A stretch of DNA of 53,208 nt from a virus (IMGVR_UViG_2671181011_000016), one strand, 5' to 3'. Positions 2,260 through 50,655 are shown, counted from the first letter of the stretch. The notes: a model not told the origin generated them from the sequence alone. Translations and numbers: made by a program.

Positions 2260-2436
2260 CGCAATGACTCCATTATGTTAATTAACGGAATAATTCTACC
2301 ATTTTGTGATTTTTGTTGCATTTTCTGCTTACACAAAATGTATTTTTTGATTTTTATCAATATACGAAATGTGGTTTTGTCGGATATTTAAGTCACCGGA
2401 TGAACCGGACGAACCAACAAGAATGAGGATTCAAAA

Positions 2437-9407: not shown

Positions 9408-9460
9408 TTTATCACCTTGTCATTTTGTGATCTCAATCACGCTAAATCATGCCAAAACGG

Positions 9461-9489
9461 TTGATCGCGTTTTTTACAATATGTATATT
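9461..9489 (+). promoter_or_regulatory. sigma70-like promoter of moron cassette A
   Basis: -35 TTGATC, 17-bp spacer, -10 TATATT; about 17 nt upstream of the first + strand gene; an inverted motif variant ATCACAAAATG lies at 9421-9432. Confidence 0.5.
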
Positions 9490-9505
9490 GTACTCAAAAG
9501 GAAGC

Positions 9506-9691
9506 ATGGTTAACAAAATGGCGCGGAGGTGTGAAATGGATGATAAGGTGTGGAGGTTGGCGGTGTTCCTTGCGGATGGCAGGAAAATGACTGTGGCCCT
9601 GTATAAAGATGAAGGCGAGGCACTTACCGACGCGCTCTTACTCGCTGAAGACGAACGCGTTTTGGGGTACAGGATCGAACCTGTCAAATGA
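9506..9691 (+). CDS. hypothetical protein (moron A1)
   Basis: 61 aa; RBS AAAGGAAG before ATG; start chosen among three in-frame ATGs; no recognisable domain. Confidence 0.5.
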   Translation: MVNKMARRCEMDDKVWRLAVFLADGRKMTVALYKDEGEALTDALLLAEDERVLGYRIEPVK

Positions 9692-11649: not shown

Positions 11650-11735
11650 GATTCCCCCTATAAGTTACATATTGCATACATCTTTACGCGCTTCTACGCG
11701 AAAAATGAGAAATTCATCACAAGAATTATAACCAG

Positions 11736-11777
11736 TTTACAAAATGGCTTCACATAGGGCGTGACAAGATGTATATA
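11736..11777 (+). promoter_or_regulatory. sigma70-like promoter of moron cassette B with upstream TTTACAAAATGG motif
   Basis: motif 11736-11747, -35 TTCACA (11749-11754), 17-bp spacer, -10 TATATA (11772-11777). Confidence 0.6.
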
Positions 11778-11818
11778 GAAAGCAAGAAGAAAAAGCAGTA
11801 CCGACAAAGGGGGACAAT

Positions 11819-11974
11819 ATGGAACGCTATGTGGTTGTGATGCTGAACAACGCATTCGAACAGGTGGAGGTGGCGATAGTCAAAGGCTTTGATGACGCAT
11901 TCAAATACGGTCAATTCATGATGAACGCGAAGGAAAATGAGTACCGTGATTTCTTCCTGAAAGTGGTCAACTAA
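11819..11974 (+). CDS. hypothetical protein (moron B1)
   Basis: 51 aa; RBS AAAGGGGGA; MERYVVVMLNNAFEQ... Confidence 0.55.
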   Translation: MERYVVVMLNNAFEQVEVAIVKGFDDAFKYGQFMMNAKENEYRDFFLKVVN

Positions 11975-11992
11975 TGGATTGCGGGGTGGGTT

Positions 11993-12247
11993 ATGAAATT
12001 GGTAGCGATTGGTAAAAATCTGAAAGCACAGAAAAACGCACAGGACCGGATCATCAAAAAGGGCAAGGCTTTATTAAATGCTTTCCTGAGAAAAGAGGCC
12101 ACCCCCAAAAAATTACGCGATGGTTACGGTTATAAATTTGATATTAACCCCGATTGGCGGTTATTCAGCGAAGATTTAAAGGCGTGGTTAATTATCGACC
12201 ATCTGGAATATAACAGACACTGTGGGGTTAAAGGGGCGCATAAGTAA
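11993..12247 (+). CDS. hypothetical basic protein (moron B2)
   Basis: 84 aa; RBS GGGGTGGG; Lys-rich N-terminus. Confidence 0.55.
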   Translation: MKLVAIGKNLKAQKNAQDRIIKKGKALLNAFLRKEATPKKLRDGYGYKFDINPDWRLFSEDLKAWLIIDHLEYNRHCGVKGAHK

Positions 12248-12354
12248 GGCGGGCATGAAGGGCGATAAATTCACCCGGCGGGGGAACTGGAATGTTTGAC
12301 AGGTAATTTTGGATAGGGTGTATCGCGCGGAATGGTTGTTTATAAATACGAAAA

Positions 12355-12388
12355 TAGCCCCGGCATTGTACCGGGGTTTGGTTTATTT
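12355..12388. terminator. bidirectional rho-independent terminator (moron B / tape measure gene)
   Basis: hairpin CCCCGG-CATTGTA-CCGGGG followed by TTTGGTTTATTT; overlaps the TMP stop codon. Confidence 0.65.
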
Positions 12389-14731
12389 GCGGCGAGGTTG
12401 CAACATTCCTCCGGGTCGCTGCGATTCCCTTGCCATCATTTTCATCGCGACGCGTTCCATCGTCTGTTCAAGTCTGCGACTGTCTTCGTCGCTAAATCCG
12501 TTTGTGGTCTGTACGGTGATGTTAACAGGCATATTGATGCCGCCGCCGCTGAAGAGATCACGGCCAGGAATTACCCTACCATTCTCGCCAGGAATCATAT
12601 ACTGACGCCCATTGCTCGTCTGGAATAGCTCTGGGATTCCGTGCTCACCTACGCGATACAGGCTGCCACCATTAACAGAACCACCATTATAACGCCCGCC
12701 ACCAAAGATTGACGTTGCCAGCGACATGATCGCAGAAAGCGCCGCAGCACCAGCCGCCGCCCAGCTACCACCAGTTGACGCCGCAGTCGCCGCCGCCGCT
12801 GGGGCCGCCGCCGCTGCAATCTGGCCTTGTGCCGCTACTGCGCCAGCCGTTGTACTTGCCTGGGTAGCCTTGCTTTGCGTTTCCATCATCAATTGATCTG
12901 CTATCCAGTTAGCGGCAATTTCTGACAGTTTGTTGCCAACGGTGTTAAGTATGCTACTTCCCAGGTTGGCGAAAACCTCGCTTAATGATTGAGTGCCGTT
13001 TAGCAGTCCGGTAAGGGCATTACCCATGCCACCCTTCAGGCCGCTGACGCACGCACCAATCAGGCCGTTTGTTTCGCTTTGCGCCTGCCATTGTTCCCAT
13101 TTCAGATCTCTGATCTGTTGTTCATATTCCAATAGCGCCTGTTTCTGTTGCGCCTCTGTAGCGCCCAAGTCTATCAGCATTTGTTTGCGAACGGCCCATT
13201 CATTTTGTGCCTGCTTGATTGGGTCAATTTCTCCCTTAAGCTGGTCCATCGGGCTGACTATGTGATCCCATTTGTCGCGTAGCTCATCAACAGGGATTTG
13301 CGCCAATTCGTCCTTCAGTTCCTTGCCTATCCCTTTCTGCGCGGCCTTGTACTCAAGTAGGGTTATTTTGCCCTGGGCGAATGCAGCTTCAATGGCCTTG
13401 CCGTTCTCTAATGCGTTGCGCATAGCGGCGGCGTCCTTGTTGTACTGGTCGGACACTTTTATGCCTTCATCACCAAGCCGATCAGCTTCAGATTTCTTGT
13501 CCTTTTTGCCCTTTTTCCCTTTTTTAGGCTTACCGACTGGCTGATCGAATCCGGTGATCTTGCCATCGTCAGCCTCATCCTGTTTCTGCATTAACTCATC
13601 ATAGGCGGCGGTCGCGTTTTTAATGTCGTTTGCAAACGTCATGACTTTGCCGACGGTGGGGCCAAATTTTTTCTCGTTGTTGCTGTTTAGCTCTTCCTTG
13701 CGTTTATCGACGATCTCCTTCATCCACTTGTAACCATCCATTAGCGCTTTGATTGGCGTTACCATTTTGATGATTTCTTCCGCCACCTCACCAGCCTTAA
13801 CAGCAACGTCGTCAAACATGTCGATGAACTCGTTACCAGCGGTTTTAAGTGTGTTGAAACAGGTTGCGGCGAATTTTGCGCCTTTACCCAATCCCTCAAC
13901 GCCACTAGTGATTAAGTCTATTGCTGTTACAACGCCGTCAGATATGCCGAAAAGATCATCAAGCTGTTCGACAAGTCCCATAACCTCAACTTTAAGCTCG
14001 TTGAAGGCCATGCCGGATGTGCGCGGCAACTGTGCGAACTTCTCGTTTGTTTCCTGCGTAGCGGCCTGGATCGCGTTAAGCATCCTTTCAGCCGTGATCT
14101 TACCGTCCAGCATTTCAGCGCGGAACTGACCCATAGACAACCCCATTTGGCGGGCCATTTCCTGTATGATTGTTGGTGTGTTGTCACGTATTGAGTTAAA
14201 TTCCTCAGCCTGCAACACGCCAGCATCAATAGCCTGGCGGAACTGAAGCATGGAGTTTGATAGTTGTTCCGCAGACACGCCGCCCAGGTTGCCGAGTTTT
14301 TGCAGCGTGCTAACCAGGTTGAGTACCTGGCCTTCTGTAGCGGATGTGTTTTTTAGCGATATAGCAAGACCTTGCCACAGGGCACCAGTATCCTTAAGGC
14401 TTTGCCCTGTTTCTTTTGATATATCTTTCAGTCTGTTGAAAACACGCTCCGTGGCCTCCGCTTCACCTGTAAGCAGTTTGATTTTTACGCGAAGCATTTT
14501 CGCTTGCTCCGCCATGTCAATAAACTGGCGTACAGCCTCCGCAGCAAGTAGCAAATGGATAACCCTGGATAGCGCTTTGATTGAAGTCTTAAGCGTGTTC
14601 ACCTGGCGGTCAGCGCGTTTTGCGCCACGCTCGATGCTGTCAAAAGCCTGGTCTGCCTGTCGTTGAGCAACGAGAAGTTGACCAGTTTTTGCATCAACTT
14701 CGTAGTAAATTGTACCTAAACTAGTTGCCAT
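12383..14731 (-). CDS. tail tape measure protein
   Basis: 782 aa, largely alpha-helical and Ala/Gln/Lys-rich with a Gly-rich C-terminal part; sits at the lambda H position upstream of M. Confidence 0.85.
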   Translation of the reverse strand: MATSLGTIYYEVDAKTGQLLVAQRQADQAFDSIERGAKRADRQVNTLKTSIKALSRVIHLLLAAEAVRQFIDMAEQAKMLRVKIKLLTGEAEATERVFNRLKDISKETGQSLKDTGALWQGLAISLKNTSATEGQVLNLVSTLQKLGNLGGVSAEQLSNSMLQFRQAIDAGVLQAEEFNSIRDNTPTIIQEMARQMGLSMGQFRAEMLDGKITAERMLNAIQAATQETNEKFAQLPRTSGMAFNELKVEVMGLVEQLDDLFGISDGVVTAIDLITSGVEGLGKGAKFAATCFNTLKTAGNEFIDMFDDVAVKAGEVAEEIIKMVTPIKALMDGYKWMKEIVDKRKEELNSNNEKKFGPTVGKVMTFANDIKNATAAYDELMQKQDEADDGKITGFDQPVGKPKKGKKGKKDKKSEADRLGDEGIKVSDQYNKDAAAMRNALENGKAIEAAFAQGKITLLEYKAAQKGIGKELKDELAQIPVDELRDKWDHIVSPMDQLKGEIDPIKQAQNEWAVRKQMLIDLGATEAQQKQALLEYEQQIRDLKWEQWQAQSETNGLIGACVSGLKGGMGNALTGLLNGTQSLSEVFANLGSSILNTVGNKLSEIAANWIADQLMMETQSKATQASTTAGAVAAQGQIAAAAAPAAAATAASTGGSWAAAGAAALSAIMSLATSIFGGGRYNGGSVNGGSLYRVGEHGIPELFQTSNGRQYMIPGENGRVIPGRDLFSGGGINMPVNITVQTTNGFSDEDSRRLEQTMERVAMKMMARESQRPGGMLQPRRK

Positions 14732-14768
14732 GATTTAACCTCATGAAAGTGTGATCTACGTCTCTATT

Positions 14769-14811
14769 TTATACAAAATGGCTTCACTTCAACGAGTACA
14801 TTTTGTATAAA
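14769..14811 (+). promoter_or_regulatory. sigma70-like promoter of moron cassette C with upstream TTATACAAAATGG motif
   Basis: motif 14769-14781, -35 TTCACT, 17-bp spacer, -10 TATAAA (14806-14811); inverted motif copy CATTTTGTATAA overlaps the -10. Confidence 0.6.
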
Positions 14812-30864: not shown

Positions 30865-30908
30865 TATATAACAAAACGGCACTGCCGTAACAATGCCATT
30901 TTGTATAC
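30865..30908 (-). promoter_or_regulatory. sigma70-like promoter with upstream GTATACAAAATGG motif
   Basis: minus strand: motif (30896-30908), -35 TTGTTA, 17-bp spacer, -10 TATATA (30865-30870). Confidence 0.55.
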
Positions 30909-30916
30909 TTTGTGAT

Positions 30917-31740
30917 TCAGATCACGTTATTATCACAAGCGAAAGCCTCGCAACTTTCAGAACAACTACCTGAATCAAACTCTTTCTTGTTAATAATGCT
31001 GCTGCGTATCTCTTCTGTTTCCTCCAGCCTGAACATTGCTATTACGTCCTGCAATGCCATTTTGTTGCGATACATTTCCGGCTTACCTTCCTTGCAATCA
31101 TGTTCTGCAATGCAACTACAAAACTGGTCATATAGTTCAGGTTCATCCCTTGCTGCCAATGCCAACTTCTTGTTGCTCTTCTTAATGCAGAAAACACAAT
31201 TACCAAGATGTTCGGGGATCTCTAAATCAAATGACTGCCCTGACCACCAATCAATAATATCCTGCTTCTCAAAGTCACTTATATCTGCCAGATAGTGAAA
31301 ACCCTCCCTTTCGTGTAGTCTGCGTGGCTCATCTGCCCTAATACCTAACCAGCGTTCATAATTGCCTTTGCCATAGTGTTCATCACAATACTTTTCAAAA
31401 GGTAGTTGTTTCATCCTGTGAGTACAGAATGCCCCGCCGATATAAGGATGGCCATAATGTTCCAGGATTCTCCGCCACGGAACAAGGTCACATCTTATAT
31501 CATCAATACCAATGATCTCGTAACTGAATTTACCGTATTTAATTGCAGGAGGAACGCAGCGGAGGCAAGTTATTTTAATGTTAAAATGTGAGGATAAATT
31601 CTTTATGAACTCGTATGTTTTAGGGTGTTCACCCCTGTATCCATGAAGATAACCTCTGCGTCAGGGTGAATTTTCAATACCTCTAGAGTCATGCAAGCAG
31701 AAGTCCTTCCACCACTGAATGATATTACTTGATGTTTCAT
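30917..31740 (-). pseudogene. PAPS reductase-like (PP-loop ATPase family) gene disrupted by a 1-nt frameshift
   Basis: N-terminal frame MKHQVISFSGGRTSA...FMDTG stops after 45 codons; reading continues in another frame (EHPKTYEFIKN... to 30917); shift lies at a G4 run (31633-31636); a fifth G would restore FMDTGGEHPKTYEF. Confidence 0.65.
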
Positions 31741-36781: not shown

Positions 36782-36940
36782 AATGCTCTCTCCTTTTCAG
36801 GTGATTTCTACGCATTTCAGCGCTGCCGGATTTTTAAAGAGCATTTCGTTTGCTTGAAGTATACAAAATGGATACACCAGAACAAGGCAAAAAGCGCCAT
36901 TATGTGATCTGTATCACGCAATGACGCCATTATGTAAACT

Positions 36941-40416: not shown

Positions 40417-40515
40417 CTTGTTTCCCTCCGTACCGTAAACCTTTTGATTTAAGTTTACAAAACGGATTCGCGATCACAGTACAAAATGTATAGCTATGTG
40501 ATCGCAATCACAATA

Positions 40516-43747: not shown

Positions 43748-43896
43748 TATTTAATCTCCCGTGCTGTTAACACTATGTATAAGGCTTTATTCGCGGCGCT
43801 CCACATTTCGGCATCGTGAAGCATTTCCGCTACTGCCAGTTTGAATTGAAGCGCCTGAATAACCATAATGTCATCTCCGGACGTTTACATTTTGTA

Positions 43897-44187
43897 TTAA
43901 TGATAGCGGACTTTATCCAGGGGTTTTTCCCCTAAATGGCGTGGTTGCGTTGCGTGGTAGTAGCTGCCGCTTTCATTTTCCGTATACCATTTTACTGATC
44001 CTTTGCGACGTTCTTTAATGCTATTTGGTTTGCATCTTTCCTCGTTTGCAAATCGAATAGCTTTATCCACATTGTCTGTTTTATTGATTGCAGGTGATGA
44101 TTTTCTTTCGTTTTCTCTTTTTATCCTTCTGCGTTCCCTGGCATTCATTTTGCTATCACATTTACCATATATAATTGTAACGCTCAT
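43897..44187 (-). CDS. N-like transcription antiterminator (P22 gene 24-like)
   Basis: 96 aa; N-terminus MSVTIIYGK...NARERRRIKRENERK resembles the P22 N start and the arginine-rich motif of N proteins (from memory); first gene downstream of PL and nutL. Confidence 0.55.
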   Translation of the reverse strand: MSVTIIYGKCDSKMNARERRRIKRENERKSSPAINKTDNVDKAIRFANEERCKPNSIKERRKGSVKWYTENESGSYYHATQPRHLGEKPLDKVRYH

Positions 44188-44535: not shown

Positions 44536-44578
44536 AATATACGCCCCGTAAAACACCGAGTCAATCCATTTTGTATAC
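44536..44578 (-). promoter_or_regulatory. candidate PL promoter with upstream GTATACAAAATGG motif
   Basis: minus strand: motif (44566-44578), -35 TTGACT, 17-bp spacer, -10 TATATT (44536-44541). Confidence 0.55.
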
Positions 44579-44687: not shown

Positions 44688-45335
44688 TTATGGCAGGTTT
44701 ACGATCTTCGCATCAACCACCACGCCTATAATTTTTGATTCTGGATTCATAGGGATTGGCGGATACAGCGGATTCAGCGAACGTAAAAGCCTTTGACCTC
44801 CATCAATAATCAACTGTTTAAACGTCGGTATCTGCCCTTCCTCAAGCTGGGCTATAACCAGTTTGCCGTCAATAGCTGGCGCGTGCGGGTCAACAAGTAT
44901 CATCGTCCCCGCCGGGATGCTCAACCCCTGCGGCGCGTTCATTGATTCACCTTTGGCAACCAGCCAGTAACTATCATCTGAACAAATAACGCTAGTCGTA
45001 ACGTGTGGTAATGCTGATCGCCTTGTGTCATCCATATTGTTTACTGTGTCCTTCCAGTCAATAACCGGGTAACTACCTAAATCACGCGGCGGTGCGGCCT
45101 GAAGTGTATTAGAAACAGAATCATCAATGACCATACCATCATGTGTAACAGTGAACTGCCGACGACCAAGCGCCCGCATAATCCGCGCAATATCTTCAAG
45201 ATTTGGCTCGCGGCGACCGTTCAGCCAGTGTGACAGGCCGCCTTTAGTTATCCCCATGAGATCTGCGAGTGAATCCTGACTCATGCCCTGCGCCCGCATG
45301 AGCTGCTTTGCTAAGTCATACCATTTTGTTTTCAT
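44688..45335 (-). CDS. cI: CI-type prophage repressor (HTH plus S24 LexA-like autopeptidase domain)
   Basis: 215 aa; N-terminal HTH (QDSLADLMGITKGGLSHWLNG); C-terminal GESM Ser motif and TFKQLIIDGGQRLLRSLNPLYP closely resembling the lambda CI C-terminus. Confidence 0.85.
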   Translation of the reverse strand: MKTKWYDLAKQLMRAQGMSQDSLADLMGITKGGLSHWLNGRREPNLEDIARIMRALGRRQFTVTHDGMVIDDSVSNTLQAAPPRDLGSYPVIDWKDTVNNMDDTRRSALPHVTTSVICSDDSYWLVAKGESMNAPQGLSIPAGTMILVDPHAPAIDGKLVIAQLEEGQIPTFKQLIIDGGQRLLRSLNPLYPPIPMNPESKIIGVVVDAKIVNLP

Positions 45336-45641
45336 GTCGCTACCCTATAACCTCAAAAAGTTTGATGCAAGTCACAAAACGTGTATTTTAAGCCTTGATC
45401 TTAAAATTCCATTTTGTAAACTTGCAGACAAGGTAAGGCCATACTTGCAAAGACGCAAGGAAAAAGATAACGGAAGGCACAAAAAGGCACTTACCTTAAG
45501 CTCTTTAAAAATCCGGTGTCGCTGCGAAGCGAAAAACAAATATCACGCAACGGCGGGATCTGTTCAGCGGTCAGTCACTGCTATCTAATGCTAATGGGAT
45601 GCCCGCCCGCGCGTTCACTCTAACCATAGGAGAAAAACAAG
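45336..45641. promoter_or_regulatory. immunity-region intergenic segment (divergent promoters / operators)
   Basis: 306 bp between divergent cI and rightward operon; CTTGC..GCAAG inverted repeats (e.g. CTTGCAAAGACGCAAG); motif copy TTTACAAAATGG at 45409-45420 (minus); exact -10/-35 boxes not resolved. Confidence 0.5.
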
Positions 45642-48069: not shown

Positions 48070-48102
48070 GTATACATTTTGTTAACTGGAGGGATTAACA
48101 TT

Positions 48103-49221
48103 ATGTCGCAAAGAAAAATCAGCGATGAGCAATTGATCGCTGAATACAACAACGGTTTAACGTACAAACAGATTGCTGAGAAGTACGGCATGTCTAAACG
48201 CAATGTCGAGCGCCTGGGCGCAAAACTGGCGAAACGTGGTTTATTATCAACACGCCGCGCGCCTGGTTTTGGCGTCAATGGCGAGTCGTTGCTAGTCGAT
48301 AAAAACGGCAATGTGATCATGCGCTGGATTAAAACAGCCCGTGACCGCGACGAAATGGAACAGTTAATGGAAGCGGCCCGCGACGCTTTCATGGATGAAA
48401 TACCACGCGCGGAGGCTGTGCCAGTGCCTGAAATTGATTTTCAAAAAAGCCTGGCCCTTTATCCGGTGTTTGATCTGCATATCGGGGCGCTTGCTCATAA
48501 AGCTGAATGCGGAGAGAGCTACGATACTGGGATCGCTGAGCGCGTGTTGAATGACTTCTTTGACTACGCCGTTGGCGCTGCTCCGATGTCTGAAAAAGCC
48601 GTTTTGCTTCTCGGTGGCGACCTGCTTCATTCTGACGGTATGGTCCCGGTGACGCCAATAAGCGGGCACATTCTTGATCAAGATAGTCGCTACGCAAAAC
48701 TTGTTTATGTGGCGATCAGGTCTGTCCGGCGGGCGGTAGGTAAAATGTTGTTAAATCATAAGGATGTTGAAATCCAGGTGTTATCAGGCAATCACGATCA
48801 GTCAGGCATGATTTGGCTACGTGCGGCGCTGGCGGCTTTTTACGAAGATGAACCGCGCGTGACGGTTGATGTGTCACCTGCTATCGTCCACCACACACAG
48901 TACGGCAAAACATTCCTTGCTTACCACCACGGGCACACTATCAAAAAGCCGGAAAATTTATTGTCTGCTTGCGTAGCTGACTGGCGTGAGGATTTTGGCA
49001 AGTCTGCGGCGGTTTACGCTCATTGCGGGCACTGGCACCATCAACGGCTGATTGAATCATCGCTAGGCGTTGTTGAGTATCACGGCACATTAGCGGGTAA
49101 AGACGCTTATTCAACTAATGGCGGCTGGCGGTCGCGGCGTCTGGCGGCGGTGGTTATTTACAGCCCGGATCATGGGGAGATCGGGCGCTTTGTTTATTAC
49201 CCTGAATTTTCCATTTTGTAA
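48103..49221 (+). CDS. HTH-domain protein fused to a calcineurin-like metallophosphoesterase domain
   Basis: 372 aa from MSQRKISDEQ (RBS GGAGGG); N-terminal HTH (LTYKQIAEKYGMSKRNVERL); phosphoesterase motifs DLHIG, GGDLLH, GNHD, HHGH. Confidence 0.55.
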   Translation: MSQRKISDEQLIAEYNNGLTYKQIAEKYGMSKRNVERLGAKLAKRGLLSTRRAPGFGVNGESLLVDKNGNVIMRWIKTARDRDEMEQLMEAARDAFMDEIPRAEAVPVPEIDFQKSLALYPVFDLHIGALAHKAECGESYDTGIAERVLNDFFDYAVGAAPMSEKAVLLLGGDLLHSDGMVPVTPISGHILDQDSRYAKLVYVAIRSVRRAVGKMLLNHKDVEIQVLSGNHDQSGMIWLRAALAAFYEDEPRVTVDVSPAIVHHTQYGKTFLAYHHGHTIKKPENLLSACVADWREDFGKSAAVYAHCGHWHHQRLIESSLGVVEYHGTLAGKDAYSTNGGWRSRRLAAVVIYSPDHGEIGRFVYYPEFSIL

Positions 49222-49239
49222 ACCGGAGGCAATAACATA

Positions 49240-50655
49240 ATGGTAACTGAACAAATAAACTCACTACGGCAGGAACGTGAGGCGTCAGTTATCGGCGGGC
49301 TGCTGTTGGGCGGCCTTACTCCTAACGCGCAAGATGTTCTCGCCACGCTTGATCCTGAAGTGTTCACGATCCCGCTCTATAAACGTGCGTTTGAAGTTAT
49401 CCGGGCACAAGCCAGAAACAGAAATCTTATTGATGCATTGCTGGTCGGTGATGAGATTGGTAATGAAAATTTCGTACCGCTAATGCAAACGGCGCGATCG
49501 TGCCCGTCTGCTGCCAACCTGAAGGGATACGCACAGCTACTACGTGAAGAGCACCAGCGGCGGCAGATGTTGGAACTCATCGACGATATGCGCTACAAAC
49601 TGGAAACGGGGACGCTTGAGGTCGTCAAAGAGACGATGAAAGATTTTGATTCCCGGTACTCAAAATTAAAGGTAACGAAAGATAAGATCATTCCGGTTCT
49701 GTTGCGCGATGCGGTACAGGAATATACGGATGTTTTAAGCAAGCGCATGGAATGCGGTGTCAATTCTGACAACATCAAAACAGGTATAGAACCACTCGAC
49801 GAAATGTTGGGCGGCATTAACGCTACTGATTTGGTACTTCTCGCCGGACGCCCTGGGTCTGGTAAATCTGCGTTGGCGCTGACAATTGCCCGCGCTGCCG
49901 CTGAACGCCCTTACCCTGGCAGTAAAGATCAGCGGGTTGGCGTTTTGTTCTTCACTCTTGAAATGTCACTCGATCAGATGACTGAGCGAGCTATCGCTGG
50001 CGCTGGTAATTTATCAACTGACTGCCTGCGCAATCCGGTAAAACTTGATGATGAAGGGTGGGCGCATGTCGGCCAGGGTATGAGCGCACTTGCTAACCTT
50101 GATGTGTGGATCGTTGACGCGTCGCAGTTAACGGTTGAGGAAATACGCGCAACAACGGAACGCATGAAACAGGATCACCCAAATTTGGGTATGGTAATGA
50201 TTGACTATATCGGCTTAATGCAGCTGGCTAAGGCCGAACGTCACGATCTCGCCGTTGGGCAATTGTCGTGGTCGTTAAAGATGATGGCGAAAGAATTGCG
50301 TGTACCAGTGTTGGCGCTGGCGCAACTGTCACGCCGCGTTGAGGAACGACCGAACAAGCGCCCTAACAATTCTGATCTTCGTGATTCTGGCAACCTTGAG
50401 CAAGATGCCGACAGGATCATCATGGTTTACCGCGATGGGTATTACGACGAACAGTCTGTTGCCCGCGAATATATGGAAATCATTGTGTCAAAAAACCGTC
50501 ATGGTAAGTCTGGAACTGTTTACCAGCGGTTTGATGACAACGGTAATATCTTGCCATGCGACCAGGCTCGCGCAGCCGCCGCGTGTATTCAGTCAATGAA
50601 TCATCGCACAAGCCGTTTTAACCAACGAAACAATCAGAATAACACATCTTTTTAA
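49240..50655 (+). CDS. dnaB: replicative DNA helicase, DnaB family
   Basis: 471 aa; Walker A GRPGSGKS, Walker B-like VMIDYIGLM, N-terminal DnaB-like domain; RBS GGAGG. Confidence 0.85.
   Translation: MVTEQINSLRQEREASVIGGLLLGGLTPNAQDVLATLDPEVFTIPLYKRAFEVIRAQARNRNLIDALLVGDEIGNENFVPLMQTARSCPSAANLKGYAQLLREEHQRRQMLELIDDMRYKLETGTLEVVKETMKDFDSRYSKLKVTKDKIIPVLLRDAVQEYTDVLSKRMECGVNSDNIKTGIEPLDEMLGGINATDLVLLAGRPGSGKSALALTIARAAAERPYPGSKDQRVGVLFFTLEMSLDQMTERAIAGAGNLSTDCLRNPVKLDDEGWAHVGQGMSALANLDVWIVDASQLTVEEIRATTERMKQDHPNLGMVMIDYIGLMQLAKAERHDLAVGQLSWSLKMMAKELRVPVLALAQLSRRVEERPNKRPNNSDLRDSGNLEQDADRIIMVYRDGYYDEQSVAREYMEIIVSKNRHGKSGTVYQRFDDNGNILPCDQARAAAACIQSMNHRTSRFNQRNNQNNTSF

Follow-up and report, generated by a model that had tools for sequence, protein, structure and literature searches.

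Phage lambda carries six operators at two loci. In phage P1 (C1) and mycobacteriophage L5 (gp71), a single repressor, unrelated to cI, serves many sites dispersed over promoters and operon interiors; these C1 operators and gp71 stoperators are best conserved in an asymmetric-looking word of 13–17 bp. Stoperators strictly follow the direction of transcription. Among the operator sets of phage L/ST64T c2, phage KPP5665-2 and prophages whose cI recognition helix reads ITKGAVSHW, we know of none that has been defined experimentally.

The window analyzed here (the whole stretch of DNA, 53,208 nucleotides) comes from a temperate coliphage and is a ~90% identity relative of coliphage mEp021 (mEpimmI group). 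Phages of this group are reported to match lambdoid coliphages in frequency in the human gut. Their immunity has been defined by genetics; one paper on the group (PMC11893012) gives no sequence for an operator. An earlier note, made from the sequence alone, described a 12–13-mer that recurs in the window next to several promoters. In our reading, to which we assign a probability of about 0.85, the 13-mer marks the conserved stretch within 17-bp operators for Rep, a lambda-cI-like repressor encoded in the window.

Recurrence and architecture of the motif

Across the whole window, KTWTACAAAATGG had 13 matches at ≤1 mismatch, against 0.64 expected, and none of 100 shuffles reached 13; ACAAAATG ranked second among 8-mers by frequency (23 copies). 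The recurrence beyond chance claimed by the earlier note was thus borne out, and the copies it listed were found to within one base at 11735-47(+), 14769-81(+), 30896-908(-), 36859-71(+), 44566-78(-) and 45409-21(-). Also present were the inverted partner of the 14769 copy (14798-14810(-)), the variants (36927-39(-) and about 36893-36909(-)) and a loose copy at 9421. Further good copies lay at 49211(-), 40453(+), 9509(+), 43887(-), 48074(-), 40477(+), 9472(+) and 2295/2329. Nearly all KTWTACAAAATGG copies were intergenic; placement at gene junctions was judged from the mEp021 annotation, because greedy ORF calling gave spurious ORFs. The matches at 22363 (portal gene) and 52159 (small ORF) are probably due to chance, because they are intragenic and drift at synonymous positions in relatives.

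Within a 17-bp pseudo-palindrome, the 13-mer spans the left half-site (GTWTAC) and the centre (AAAAT) and runs into the right half. The consensus has a 6-5-6 layout, namely GTWTAC, an A/T-rich centre (usually AAAAT), and then GTAWAC or a weaker GGnnnn; GTATACAAAATGGATTG and TAATACAAAATGTAAAC are examples. Symmetric 17-mers occur at sites C (TAATAC-AAAAT-GTAAAC), E (GTTAAC-AAAAT-GTATAC), D2 and 9472, and GTATAC-AAAAT-GGATAC (site H) was counted among them. Both the 17-bp length and the twofold pseudo-symmetry are those of lambda-type operators. Among 45 related loci, conservation ends exactly after position 17 at sites H and C, and the most conserved part is formed by the non-A/T flanks, GTWTAC and TGG. 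Column-wise conservation was of limited use, since whole regulatory regions are >90% conserved among close relatives. Altogether, ~23 candidate 17-mers lie at ~10 loci between 2266 and 49223 (Table 1). They do not share one orientation relative to transcription: D1, D2 and H face against the local genes, and C, I and the O2 sites run with them.

Scores from an ad hoc 17-bp half-site scheme were only modestly enriched and discriminated weakly (18 matches versus 7.1 in shuffles). Right halves of the most frequent class ('TGG'; GGATTG, GGCTTC and similar) fit the ideal half-site poorly. In L052, of a distant phage group (L052-54), an 18-bp (6-6-6) reading suits some sites better, so the exact register of the right half is uncertain. 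Conservation of the near-invariant AAAAT centre and of the GG also exceeds what a cI-type centre normally requires.

Several other readings of the word were tried and set aside: an embedded −35 (TTTACA) or reversed −10 (TATACT), for which partner hexamers are missing at most copies; a phage 434-type ACAA-N6-TTGT element, replaced by the 6-5-6 model; a nut site, the boxA/boxB-like sequences nearby being distinct words; a stoperator-like orientation against transcription, the orientation being mixed; and terminators formed by convergent pairs, plausible for one L052 pair only (GGTAGAC...GTCTACC, then a T-run) and not for pairs in the window.

Table 1. Candidate operators, promoters and neighbouring features, by position in the window.
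Feature	Position	Strand	Sequence and context
Three operator-like sites, gap between tail-fibre gene and lipoprotein accessory gene	2266..2345	mixed	2266-82 (−) ATTAAC ATAAT GGAGTC; 2295-311 (−) AATCAC AAAAT GGTAGA; 2329-45 (+) TTACAC AAAAT GTATTT
Promoter TTGATC-17-TATATT	9461-89	+	O1 TTTTAC AATAT GTATAT (9472-88) over spacer and −10
Downstream operator, 9461 locus	9509-25	+	GTTAAC AAAAT GGCGCG
Cassette, toxin-antitoxin-like accessory genes	11735..11777	+	O2 GTTTAC AAAAT GGCTTC (11735-51), −35 TTCACA (11749-54); O1 CGTGAC AAGAT GTATAT (11760-76), −10 TATATA (11772-77); 17-bp spacer
Cassette, 138-aa accessory gene	14769..14811	+	O2 TTATAC AAAAT GGCTTC (14769-85), −35 TTCACT (14783-88); 8-bp gap; O1 GAGTAC ATTTT GTATAA (14794-810), −10 TATAAA (14806-11); 17-bp spacer
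Operator-promoter cassette	30865..30908	-	O2 GTATAC AAAAT GGCATT (30908-30892), −35 TTGTTA, −10 TATATA (30870-65); 17-bp spacer
Operator cluster, cytosine methyltransferase/ninF gap	36859..36939	mixed	
Operator H	36859-75	+	GTATAC AAAAT GGATAC; 17-mer conserved, next 6 nt vary freely
Weak middle site, methyltransferase/ninF gap	36893-909	-	GATCAC ATAAT GGCGCT
CRP-like palindrome, methyltransferase/ninF cluster	36903-18		
Operator I	36923-39	-	GTTTAC ATAAT GGCGTC
Operator D1	40453-69	+	GTTTAC AAAAC GGATTC
Operator D2	40477-93	+	CAGTAC AAAAT GTATAG; then CRP-like palindrome 40497-40512
Symmetric operator C	43883..43899	-	TAATAC AAAAT GTAAAC; at end of N-like gene; 17-mer kept in 45 loci, bases directly after vary
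boxA/boxB-like sequences	about 44281-44244	-	same intergenic region as operators
Early-right operator O1	44537..44553	-	TTTTAC GGGGC GTATAT; 8 bp after O2; 5-nt overlap with −10 TATATT (44541-44536)
Early-right operator O2	44562..44578	-	GTATAC AAAAT GGATTG; last 3 nt TTG start −35 TTGACT (44564-44559)
rep	44688..45335	-	lambda-cI-like repressor, HTH_3 + Peptidase_S24; recognition helix ITKGGLSHWLNG; putative binder
Weak operator B'	45370..45386	+	AGTCAC AAAAC GTGTAT; 35 bp from B
Operator B	45405..45421	-	GTTTAC AAAAT GGAATT
boxA/boxB-like sequences	45500-45532	+	same intergenic region as operators
Symmetric operator E	48070..48086	-	GTTAAC AAAAT GTATAC; gene junction, early-left operon
Operator F	49207..49223	-	GTTTAC AAAAT GGAAAA; just 5' of helicase ribosome-binding site

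Candidate operators at promoters and gene junctions

In lambda-type switches, operators overlap the −35 and −10 of early promoters on both sides of the repressor gene, with adjacent sites ~24 bp apart; the window fits this pattern. At the early-right promoter (TTGACT-17-TATATT), O2 and O1 are 25 bp apart centre to centre. O2 is kept in 45 related loci, with an GTATACAAAATGTGTTG variant; O1 of relatives keeps its right half and varies in its left. On the other side of rep, the strong half of operator B reads, on the + strand, G and then TAAACT, which forms the −10 of a candidate early-left promoter, TTGATC (45395-400)-16-TAAACT (45417-22), on that strand. The left half of B is invariant in 47 loci, and the early-left −35 is TTGACC in many relatives. 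Read on the − strand, the weak site B' stops at the −35 hexamer TTGCAT (45370-65) of a candidate promoter for rep, a weak one with a 15-bp spacer and the −10 TATAGG (45349-44, − strand); B' has a counterpart, AGTCACAAAATGGCGCT, in L052. The motif and a boxA-like word are the only words of ≥9 nt common to both rep-flanking regulatory regions.

Three accessory-gene operons are likewise headed by an O2–8 bp–O1 cassette, and the promoter at 9461, a fourth one, carries O1. Within both early operons, gene junctions hold more operators, either single or in clusters. A ParE-like toxin is encoded downstream of the 11735 cassette (11993-12247), and O1 of the 30865-30908 cassette is degenerate (AGTGCC GTTTT GTTATA, 30883-67). 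The earlier note had described the word as lying 1–2 nt 5' of good −35 hexamers with 17-bp spacing; position and spacing were recovered at four copies (44566, 30896, 11735 and 14769). Of the four, 44566, at the early-right promoter, alone passes the promoter criteria; 'good' is generous for 30896, 11735 and 14769, because their −10 boxes end in A and the promoter scan did not list them. These three of the four cassette promoters may be weak or activator-dependent. The word also does more than abut the −35: the unit is the 17-bp operator, with its last 3 nt being the first 3 of the −35 and, in most cases, a second operator over the −10; the supposed inverted partner (14798-14810) is such a second operator.

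At the 9461..9525 locus, the downstream operator precedes the first gene of a cluster that includes an ANT/KilAC-domain ORF. The three sites at 2266..2345 are spaced 29 and 34 bp centre to centre. CRP-like palindromes (TGTGA-N6-TCACA) occurred 8 times at ≤1 mismatch, against 1.5 expected, and several operators have one beside them. In relatives, the arms of the palindromes are conserved and the centre is variable. Their centres lie about −60 to −71 from predicted (unmapped) starts, the reference positions for CRP being near −61.5 or −71.5.

Rep as the probable binder

Rep is a homologue of lambda repressor (3bdn, E=1e-19, residues 15-208) with, according to Pfam, the N-terminal HTH_3 and C-terminal Peptidase_S24 domains of a cI/LexA-type protein, and it is acidic at the positions aligned with lambda E34 and D38. 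A homologue search with its N-terminal domain alone returned fragments only. Its recognition helix (ITKG..SHW) is near-identical to the helix ITKGAVSHW found in cI proteins of classical cro/cI prophages of Enterobacter, Tatumella and Serratia. These prophages have three operators in the cro-cI gap (GTATAC-N5-GTATTC, [A/G]TATAC-N5-GTGTCT and nnATAC-N5-GTATnn), and the Enterobacter prophage has a PL-side pair, GTATACATTTTGTATTG-8 bp-GGATACGTTTTGTATAT, followed by T. Homologues with an ITQG or KTQG helix (Klebsiella phage KPP5665-2 and Salmonella phage L) have TAATAC-N5-GTATTA. Across five lineages, the half-site covaries with the cI recognition helix.

In the L052-54 group, whose proteins are 50–70% identical to those of the window, Rep is 55% identical overall and has an identical helix, ITKGGLSHWLNGRREP. 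The motif occurs there three times between cro and rep, with an O2-8-O1 pair on the early promoter, and also after the N-like gene, in the methylase-ninF gap and 5' of an antirepressor gene. These phages lack the gp14-like HTH and the 352-aa replication protein, yet keep the motif. From homology, position and helix/half-site covariation, we infer that Rep binds the operators and represses the promoters. This agrees with the earlier note, which had named the cI product as a suspect and had proposed a regulator that joins early and accessory ('moron') promoters through a shared cis element.

It is unlikely that the main binder is instead a host regulator or a Cro-like protein of the phage that uses the same operators. 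Cro does share cI operators in lambda-type switches, and in the L052 group a gene for a Cro-like HTH_3 protein adjoins the sites; several sites in the window have CRP-like palindromes as neighbours, so host factors probably act nearby. However, no Cro-type gene occupies the divergent position in the window or in mEp021, where the first gene encodes an HTH_36 protein that is missing in L052 although the motif is kept, and the covariation of the half-site is with the cI helix. To our knowledge, no E. coli regulator consensus resembles GTWTACAAAATGG, and the consensuses of IHF, Fis, OmpR, PhoP, CpxR, TyrR, MarA, ArcA, NarL and other host factors give no convincing match.

The UP-like option of the earlier note is very improbable. 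Under it, the A-rich word at about −49 to −37 would be a proximal UP subsite for the alpha C-terminal domain, with no specific regulator. Several promoters do have an A-rich tract near −42: four or five copies end 1–2 nt 5' of a −35 hexamer, and their AAAA run, near −43 to −40, coincides with an A-rich part of the proximal UP consensus. But UP elements are A/T-rich DNA confined to about −40 to −60, and this position fits those four or five copies only. Other copies cover −10 boxes (14794-810, 9472-88, 44537-53), follow a start site (9509-25), cover the early-left −10 in inverted orientation (45405-21) or stand at promoter-less gene junctions (43883-99, 48070-86, 49207-23). The sequence-specific flanks and the dyad symmetry, with fully symmetric 17-mers, are also unlike an UP element, and the same half-site builds triple operators between cro and cI in other prophages.

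Least credible is a module-boundary or recombination linker, a word kept for cassette exchange between related phages and read by no protein. In its favour, many copies stand exactly at gene junctions, alternative cassettes flank site E, and mEp021 and mEp010 have an HNH gene insertion some 12 nt past operator F. But a linker would explain neither the constant placement relative to −35/−10 hexamers nor the pairing at 25 bp, the dyad symmetry and the triple cro-cI arrays in unrelated lambdoid prophages, and the alternative cassettes at site E carry the operator in opposite orientation, which points to selection for a site rather than a crossover scar.

Proposed regulation and comparison with known systems

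With Rep as the binder, its dimers would fill the paired sites cooperatively and occlude RNA polymerase, so that both early operons and the accessory promoters would be silent in the lysogen; inactivation of Rep would release them jointly. Because the operator lies over the −10, the effect at such promoters is likely to be repression rather than enhancement. Like lambda OR2 at PRM, the weak B', adjacent to the −35 of a poor promoter, may activate transcription of rep. Sites within the operons may block the passage of transcription as roadblocks or anchor long-range loops formed by Rep.

More tentatively, and at odds that we put slightly short of even, the operator set of a cI-family repressor may have grown into a genome-wide network of ~20 sites at ~10 loci. 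It would put accessory genes of the tail region directly under immunity control, many of them beside CRP-type sites, and would set operators at gene junctions within the early operons as potential roadblocks or loop anchors. Its targets would include the ParE-like toxin pair, the ANT-domain cluster, the 138-aa gene and perhaps the gene for lipoprotein exclusion. That a lysogen should repress accessory genes is contrary to the usual view of morons, and the lipoprotein exclusion function, at least, is expected to act in lysogens. If the network is real, such 'morons' would be induction- or infection-phase genes, not lysogenic-conversion genes. The analysis gives an operator consensus, a map of early promoters and a predicted Rep regulon that reaches the accessory genes of the tail module. 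This map predicts the places of virulent mutations, the accessory genes that are switched on at induction, and a possible cAMP-CRP input to the decision. It also offers a checkable specificity rule for a widespread cI subfamily, in which a TK helix would pair with GTATAC and a TQ helix with TAATAC.

The window resembles lambda OR/OL and PR/PL in many respects: the repressors are sequence homologues; the operators are 17 bp and pseudo-symmetric; O2 and O1 are placed like OR2 and OR1 in the annotated lambda record, where OR2 runs into the TTG of the −35 of PR and OR1 overlaps the −10; sites are 24–25 bp apart centre to centre and lie on both sides of the repressor gene; and a weak repressor promoter adjoins a weaker operator. 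It differs in the half-site (GTWTAC versus TATCAC), the nearly invariant AAAAT centre, the gap between operators (8 versus 7 bp), the presence of only two clear sites per early promoter, the absence of a cro gene, and the number of sites (~20 at ~10 loci versus six at two). Rep has no Ala-Gly cleavage site, and the lysogens are not UV-inducible (PMC11893012).

The closest relatives of Rep outside its own group (44–51% identity) are phage L/ST64T c2 and the cI proteins of KPP5665-2 and the ITKGAVSHW prophages. Their operators have the same 6-5-6 layout, with TAC invariant at half-site positions 4-6; TAATACAAAATGGAAGT is found in KPP5665-2, and TACATTTTGTA occurs twice in phage L, on the OL side. 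Unlike the sites in the window, these operators are confined to the classical triplets flanking cI in the 1.4–3.7-kb stretches around cI that the analysis covered, and the TQ-helix proteins use TAATAC.

Judged by sequence, this would be an undescribed operator set of a known kind, placed over early promoters as in lambda and unusual in its spread over ~10 loci; recurrence at about ten other places, including tail-region accessory promoters, is the less usual feature. As with P1 C1 and L5 gp71, one repressor would have many genome-wide sites, and many of them lie outside the immunity region, as do the stoperators of mycobacteriophage cluster A. Unlike stoperators, the sites here have mixed orientation, an underlying dyad and symmetric versions. 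If it holds, the network would give the cI family its own version of the strategies seen with P1 C1 and with mycobacteriophage stoperators.

The recurrent unit and its genomic setting

Megablast aligns most of the window at about 90% identity with coliphages mEp010, mEp554, mEp044, mEp021 and MagusPhagus, and its orientation is the reverse of the mEp021 record. These phages make up the 'mEpimmI' group, which is Nus-dependent, non-lambdoid and temperate; one study of this group covers the structure of the repressor Rep and immunity, and does not name an operator sequence (PMC11893012). The boxA/boxB-like sequences near rep are probably the nutR1 and nutL reported for mEp021, and their words are distinct from the motif analyzed here.

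The word KTWTACAAAATGG occurs in 13 copies with at most one mismatch in the window (0.64 expected), a count reached in 0 of 100 shuffles, and ACAAAATG ranks second among 8-mers by abundance. The positions assigned to this motif in the earlier note were all right to within one base, and several extra copies are present. By homology with the mEp021 annotation, strong copies lie between genes or at gene ends. Two copies are clear exceptions, one inside the portal gene and the other within a small ORF (52159); they drift at synonymous positions in relatives and are probably chance matches. Another word, CAGAAAGCGCC, has 10 copies at ≤1 mismatch (1.1 expected) on both strands, mostly intragenic.

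Some motif copies form a dyad, TACAAAATGTA. Conservation was assessed in 45 related loci, comprising 43 IMG/VR contigs found with the Rep protein, mEp021 and mEp010. Among these, both the 36859 and the 43883 17-mers are retained, with free variation in the bases that directly follow, and at 48070 alternative flanking cassettes have an operator in the reverse orientation. Thus, the word described earlier as a 12-13-mer does recur, but the true unit is 17 bp; the 13-mer spans its strong left half and centre and reaches two bases into the right half. The right half is usually weaker, a poor match that may read in a 17- or an 18-bp register; the AAAAT centre and GG are nearly invariant.

Features of the window and of related loci (L052 and L053, from a distant phage group)
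Feature	Coordinates	Strand	Sequence or content
rep (repressor gene)	44688-45335	-	
Right-hand operon beside rep		+	boxA/boxB-like nut site, HTH_36 gene, replication genes
Left-hand operon beside rep		-	N-like gp17, erf, ssb, methylases, ninG, Q, lysis, head, tail genes
Small accessory cassettes		+	inserted among tail genes
Accessory cassette behind 11735 operator-promoter	11819-12247		51-aa ORF, then ParE-like toxin (PF24732, E=4e-11)
boxA-like and boxB-like hairpin sequences	about 44281-44244; about 45500-45532	-; +	boxA-like CGCTCATTAAC; GCTCTTTAAAAATC; boxB-like GCCGCTGGAAGTGCGGC; TCGCTGCGAAGCGA
6-5-6 site	9472-88		TTTTAC-AATAT-GTATAT
6-5-6 site	36859-75		GTATAC-AAAAT-GGATAC
6-5-6 site	40477-93		CAGTAC-AAAAT-GTATAG
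6-5-6 site (C)	43883-99		TAATAC-AAAAT-GTAAAC
6-5-6 site (E)	48070-86		GTTAAC-AAAAT-GTATAC
CRP-type palindromes, near-consensus	9426-9441, 30911-30926, 36903-36918, 40497-40512		TGTGAT-N4-ATCAC
Weaker CRP-type palindromes	11706-11721, 45361-45376		
CRP-type half-site	14750-14765		
CAGAAAGCGCC copies	3696, 7352, 7661, 12733, 25715, 27334, 36888, 39415, 42757, 43290		
GTATACAAAATGG operator copies and pRha/ANT antirepressor locus	L052 8547-8703 and 7845-8546; L053 8560-8640		

Candidate operators and promoters

A promoter scan found only one strong sigma-70 promoter near rep, TTGACT-17-TATATT (44564-44536, minus strand), which heads the N-like/erf operon. The early-right operator GTATACAAAATGGATTG (O2) terminates in the TTG of its -35, and 8 bp further on TTTTAC-GGGGC-GTATAT (O1) covers five bases of the -10. 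This O2-8 bp-O1 layout is repeated at 14769-14810, where O1 is the inverted partner listed in the earlier note, and at 11735-11776; a degenerate version lies at 30908-30867. In the promoter TTGATC-17-TATATT (9461-89), O1 lies across the spacer and -10, and a second operator follows shortly downstream. The operator-promoter register is fixed because the half-site GTATAT or GTATAA, with one further base, is also the -10 box. Accessory-gene -10 boxes are weak, and three operator-linked promoters, whose -10 ends in A and which the scan of the window did not call, may be of low strength. The ParE-like cassette looks like a toxin-antitoxin pair, apparently repressor-controlled.

The region upstream of rep has an imperfect inverted repeat (27 nt) that includes operator B (45405-21) and its weaker partner, B' (45370-86). 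The strong half of B, read on the plus strand, is G|TAAACT, 16 bp downstream of TTGATC, which is TTGACC in many relatives; TTGATC-16-TAAACT is a candidate early-left promoter with B as O1. B' adjoins the -35 of a poor minus-strand promoter, TTGCAT-15-TATAGG, just ahead of the rep start, a geometry like that of lambda OR2 at PRM. Where lambda has Glu34 and Asp38, residues with a role in positive control, the aligned residue of Rep is Asp in both cases. The only words of at least 9 nt common to both rep-flanking regions are the motif and a boxA-like word.

Operators C, D1/D2 (40453-93), H/mid/I (36859-36939), E and F (49207-23) lie at gene junctions. Neither these nor the 2266-2345 triplet has an assigned promoter, and any role as roadblocks or in looping is speculative. 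In mEp021 and mEp010 (L001 6062-6583; L002 5304-5894) an HNH/homing-endonuclease gene is inserted about 12 nt beyond operator F (49207-49240 in the window); the window lacks this gene. The long imperfect palindrome GCGCCATTATGTGATctgtATCACGCAATGACGCC (36889-36925) corresponds to TERM_4, a 'terminator' annotated in mEp021. It lacks a downstream T-run and resembles a set of overlapping sites for proteins (weak operators with a CRP-like core) more closely than it does an intrinsic terminator.

CRP-type palindromes number 8 at ≤1 mismatch in the window (1.5 expected), and in the 45 loci their arms are conserved and their centres variable. Their centres precede the predicted starts of Rep-operator promoters by about 60-71 bp, and they may link these promoters to cAMP-CRP; some overlap weak operator halves (GATCAC-AWAAT-G).

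The candidate binder

Rep is a genuine cI homologue. Outside its own group, Rep is closest to the repressor of Klebsiella phage KPP5665-2 (50% identity) and that of Salmonella phage L/ST64T (44%). Both phages have three 17-bp TAATAC-N5-GTATTA sites in the cro-cI gap and more on the other side of cI (among them TAATACAAAATGGAAGT in KPP5665-2 and two copies of TACATTTTGTA in phage L). The recognition helices of these two repressors are ITQGGLGHW and KTQGAIGHW, respectively, versus ITKGGLSHW in Rep. A TK helix (ITKGAVSHW or VTKGAVSHW) is found in homologues from ordinary cro/cI prophages of Enterobacter, Tatumella and Serratia, whose cro-cI gaps carry three operators with GTATAC-type half-sites. 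On the other side of cI, the Enterobacter prophage has GTATACATTTTGTATTG-8 bp-GGATACGTTTTGTATAT|T, the same design as early-right in the window. The half-site thus covaries with the helix, TK with GTATAC and TQ with TAATAC.

In the distant group L052-L054, proteins are 50-70% identical and Rep is 55% identical overall with an identical helix, and the motif is kept at equivalent positions. Because these phages keep it without the gp14-like HTH_36 gene or the 352-aa replication gene, both products were ruled out as binders. An inserted pRha/ANT antirepressor gene in this group is preceded by two operator copies in the same orientation (GTATACAAAATGG; 39 bp apart), and a sibling contig without that gene keeps them. 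One pair of convergent operators in L052 (19353-19400), ATCACAAAATGGTAGAC ... GTCTACCGTTTTGTATAA, could alternatively form the hairpin of a bidirectional terminator, with A and U tails; operator and terminator functions may overlap at this site.

A protein other than Rep, for example Cro or some host factor, is conceivable as an additional ligand but not supported as the primary one. The UP-like element proposed in the earlier note for a word adjoining -35 boxes fails on position, symmetry and comparative data. A recombination linker would leave the promoter register unaccounted for.

Proposed mechanism and known systems

By strong analogy with lambda, Rep dimers on the O1/O2 pairs and operator B would shut RNA polymerase out of both early promoters. 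Through the same cassettes, control by Rep would extend to four further targets: the ParE-like toxin pair, the 138-aa gene, the ANT-domain cluster and the transcription unit at 30908. These would then be derepressed jointly with the early genes.

The operator-promoter logic is that of a familiar cI-type switch: in the lambda record, OR2 also has the TTG of the PR -35 as its last three bases, and OR1, 7 bp further on (8 bp in the window), overlaps the -10. The operator set appears undescribed for the mEpimmI group and the TK-helix subfamily, and the TK helix was not found in any well-studied phage. Its distribution over about ten loci, tail-module accessory genes among them, is atypical of cI-family repressors; P1 and cluster-A mycobacteriophages are precedents for dispersed repressor sites, but with unrelated repressors.
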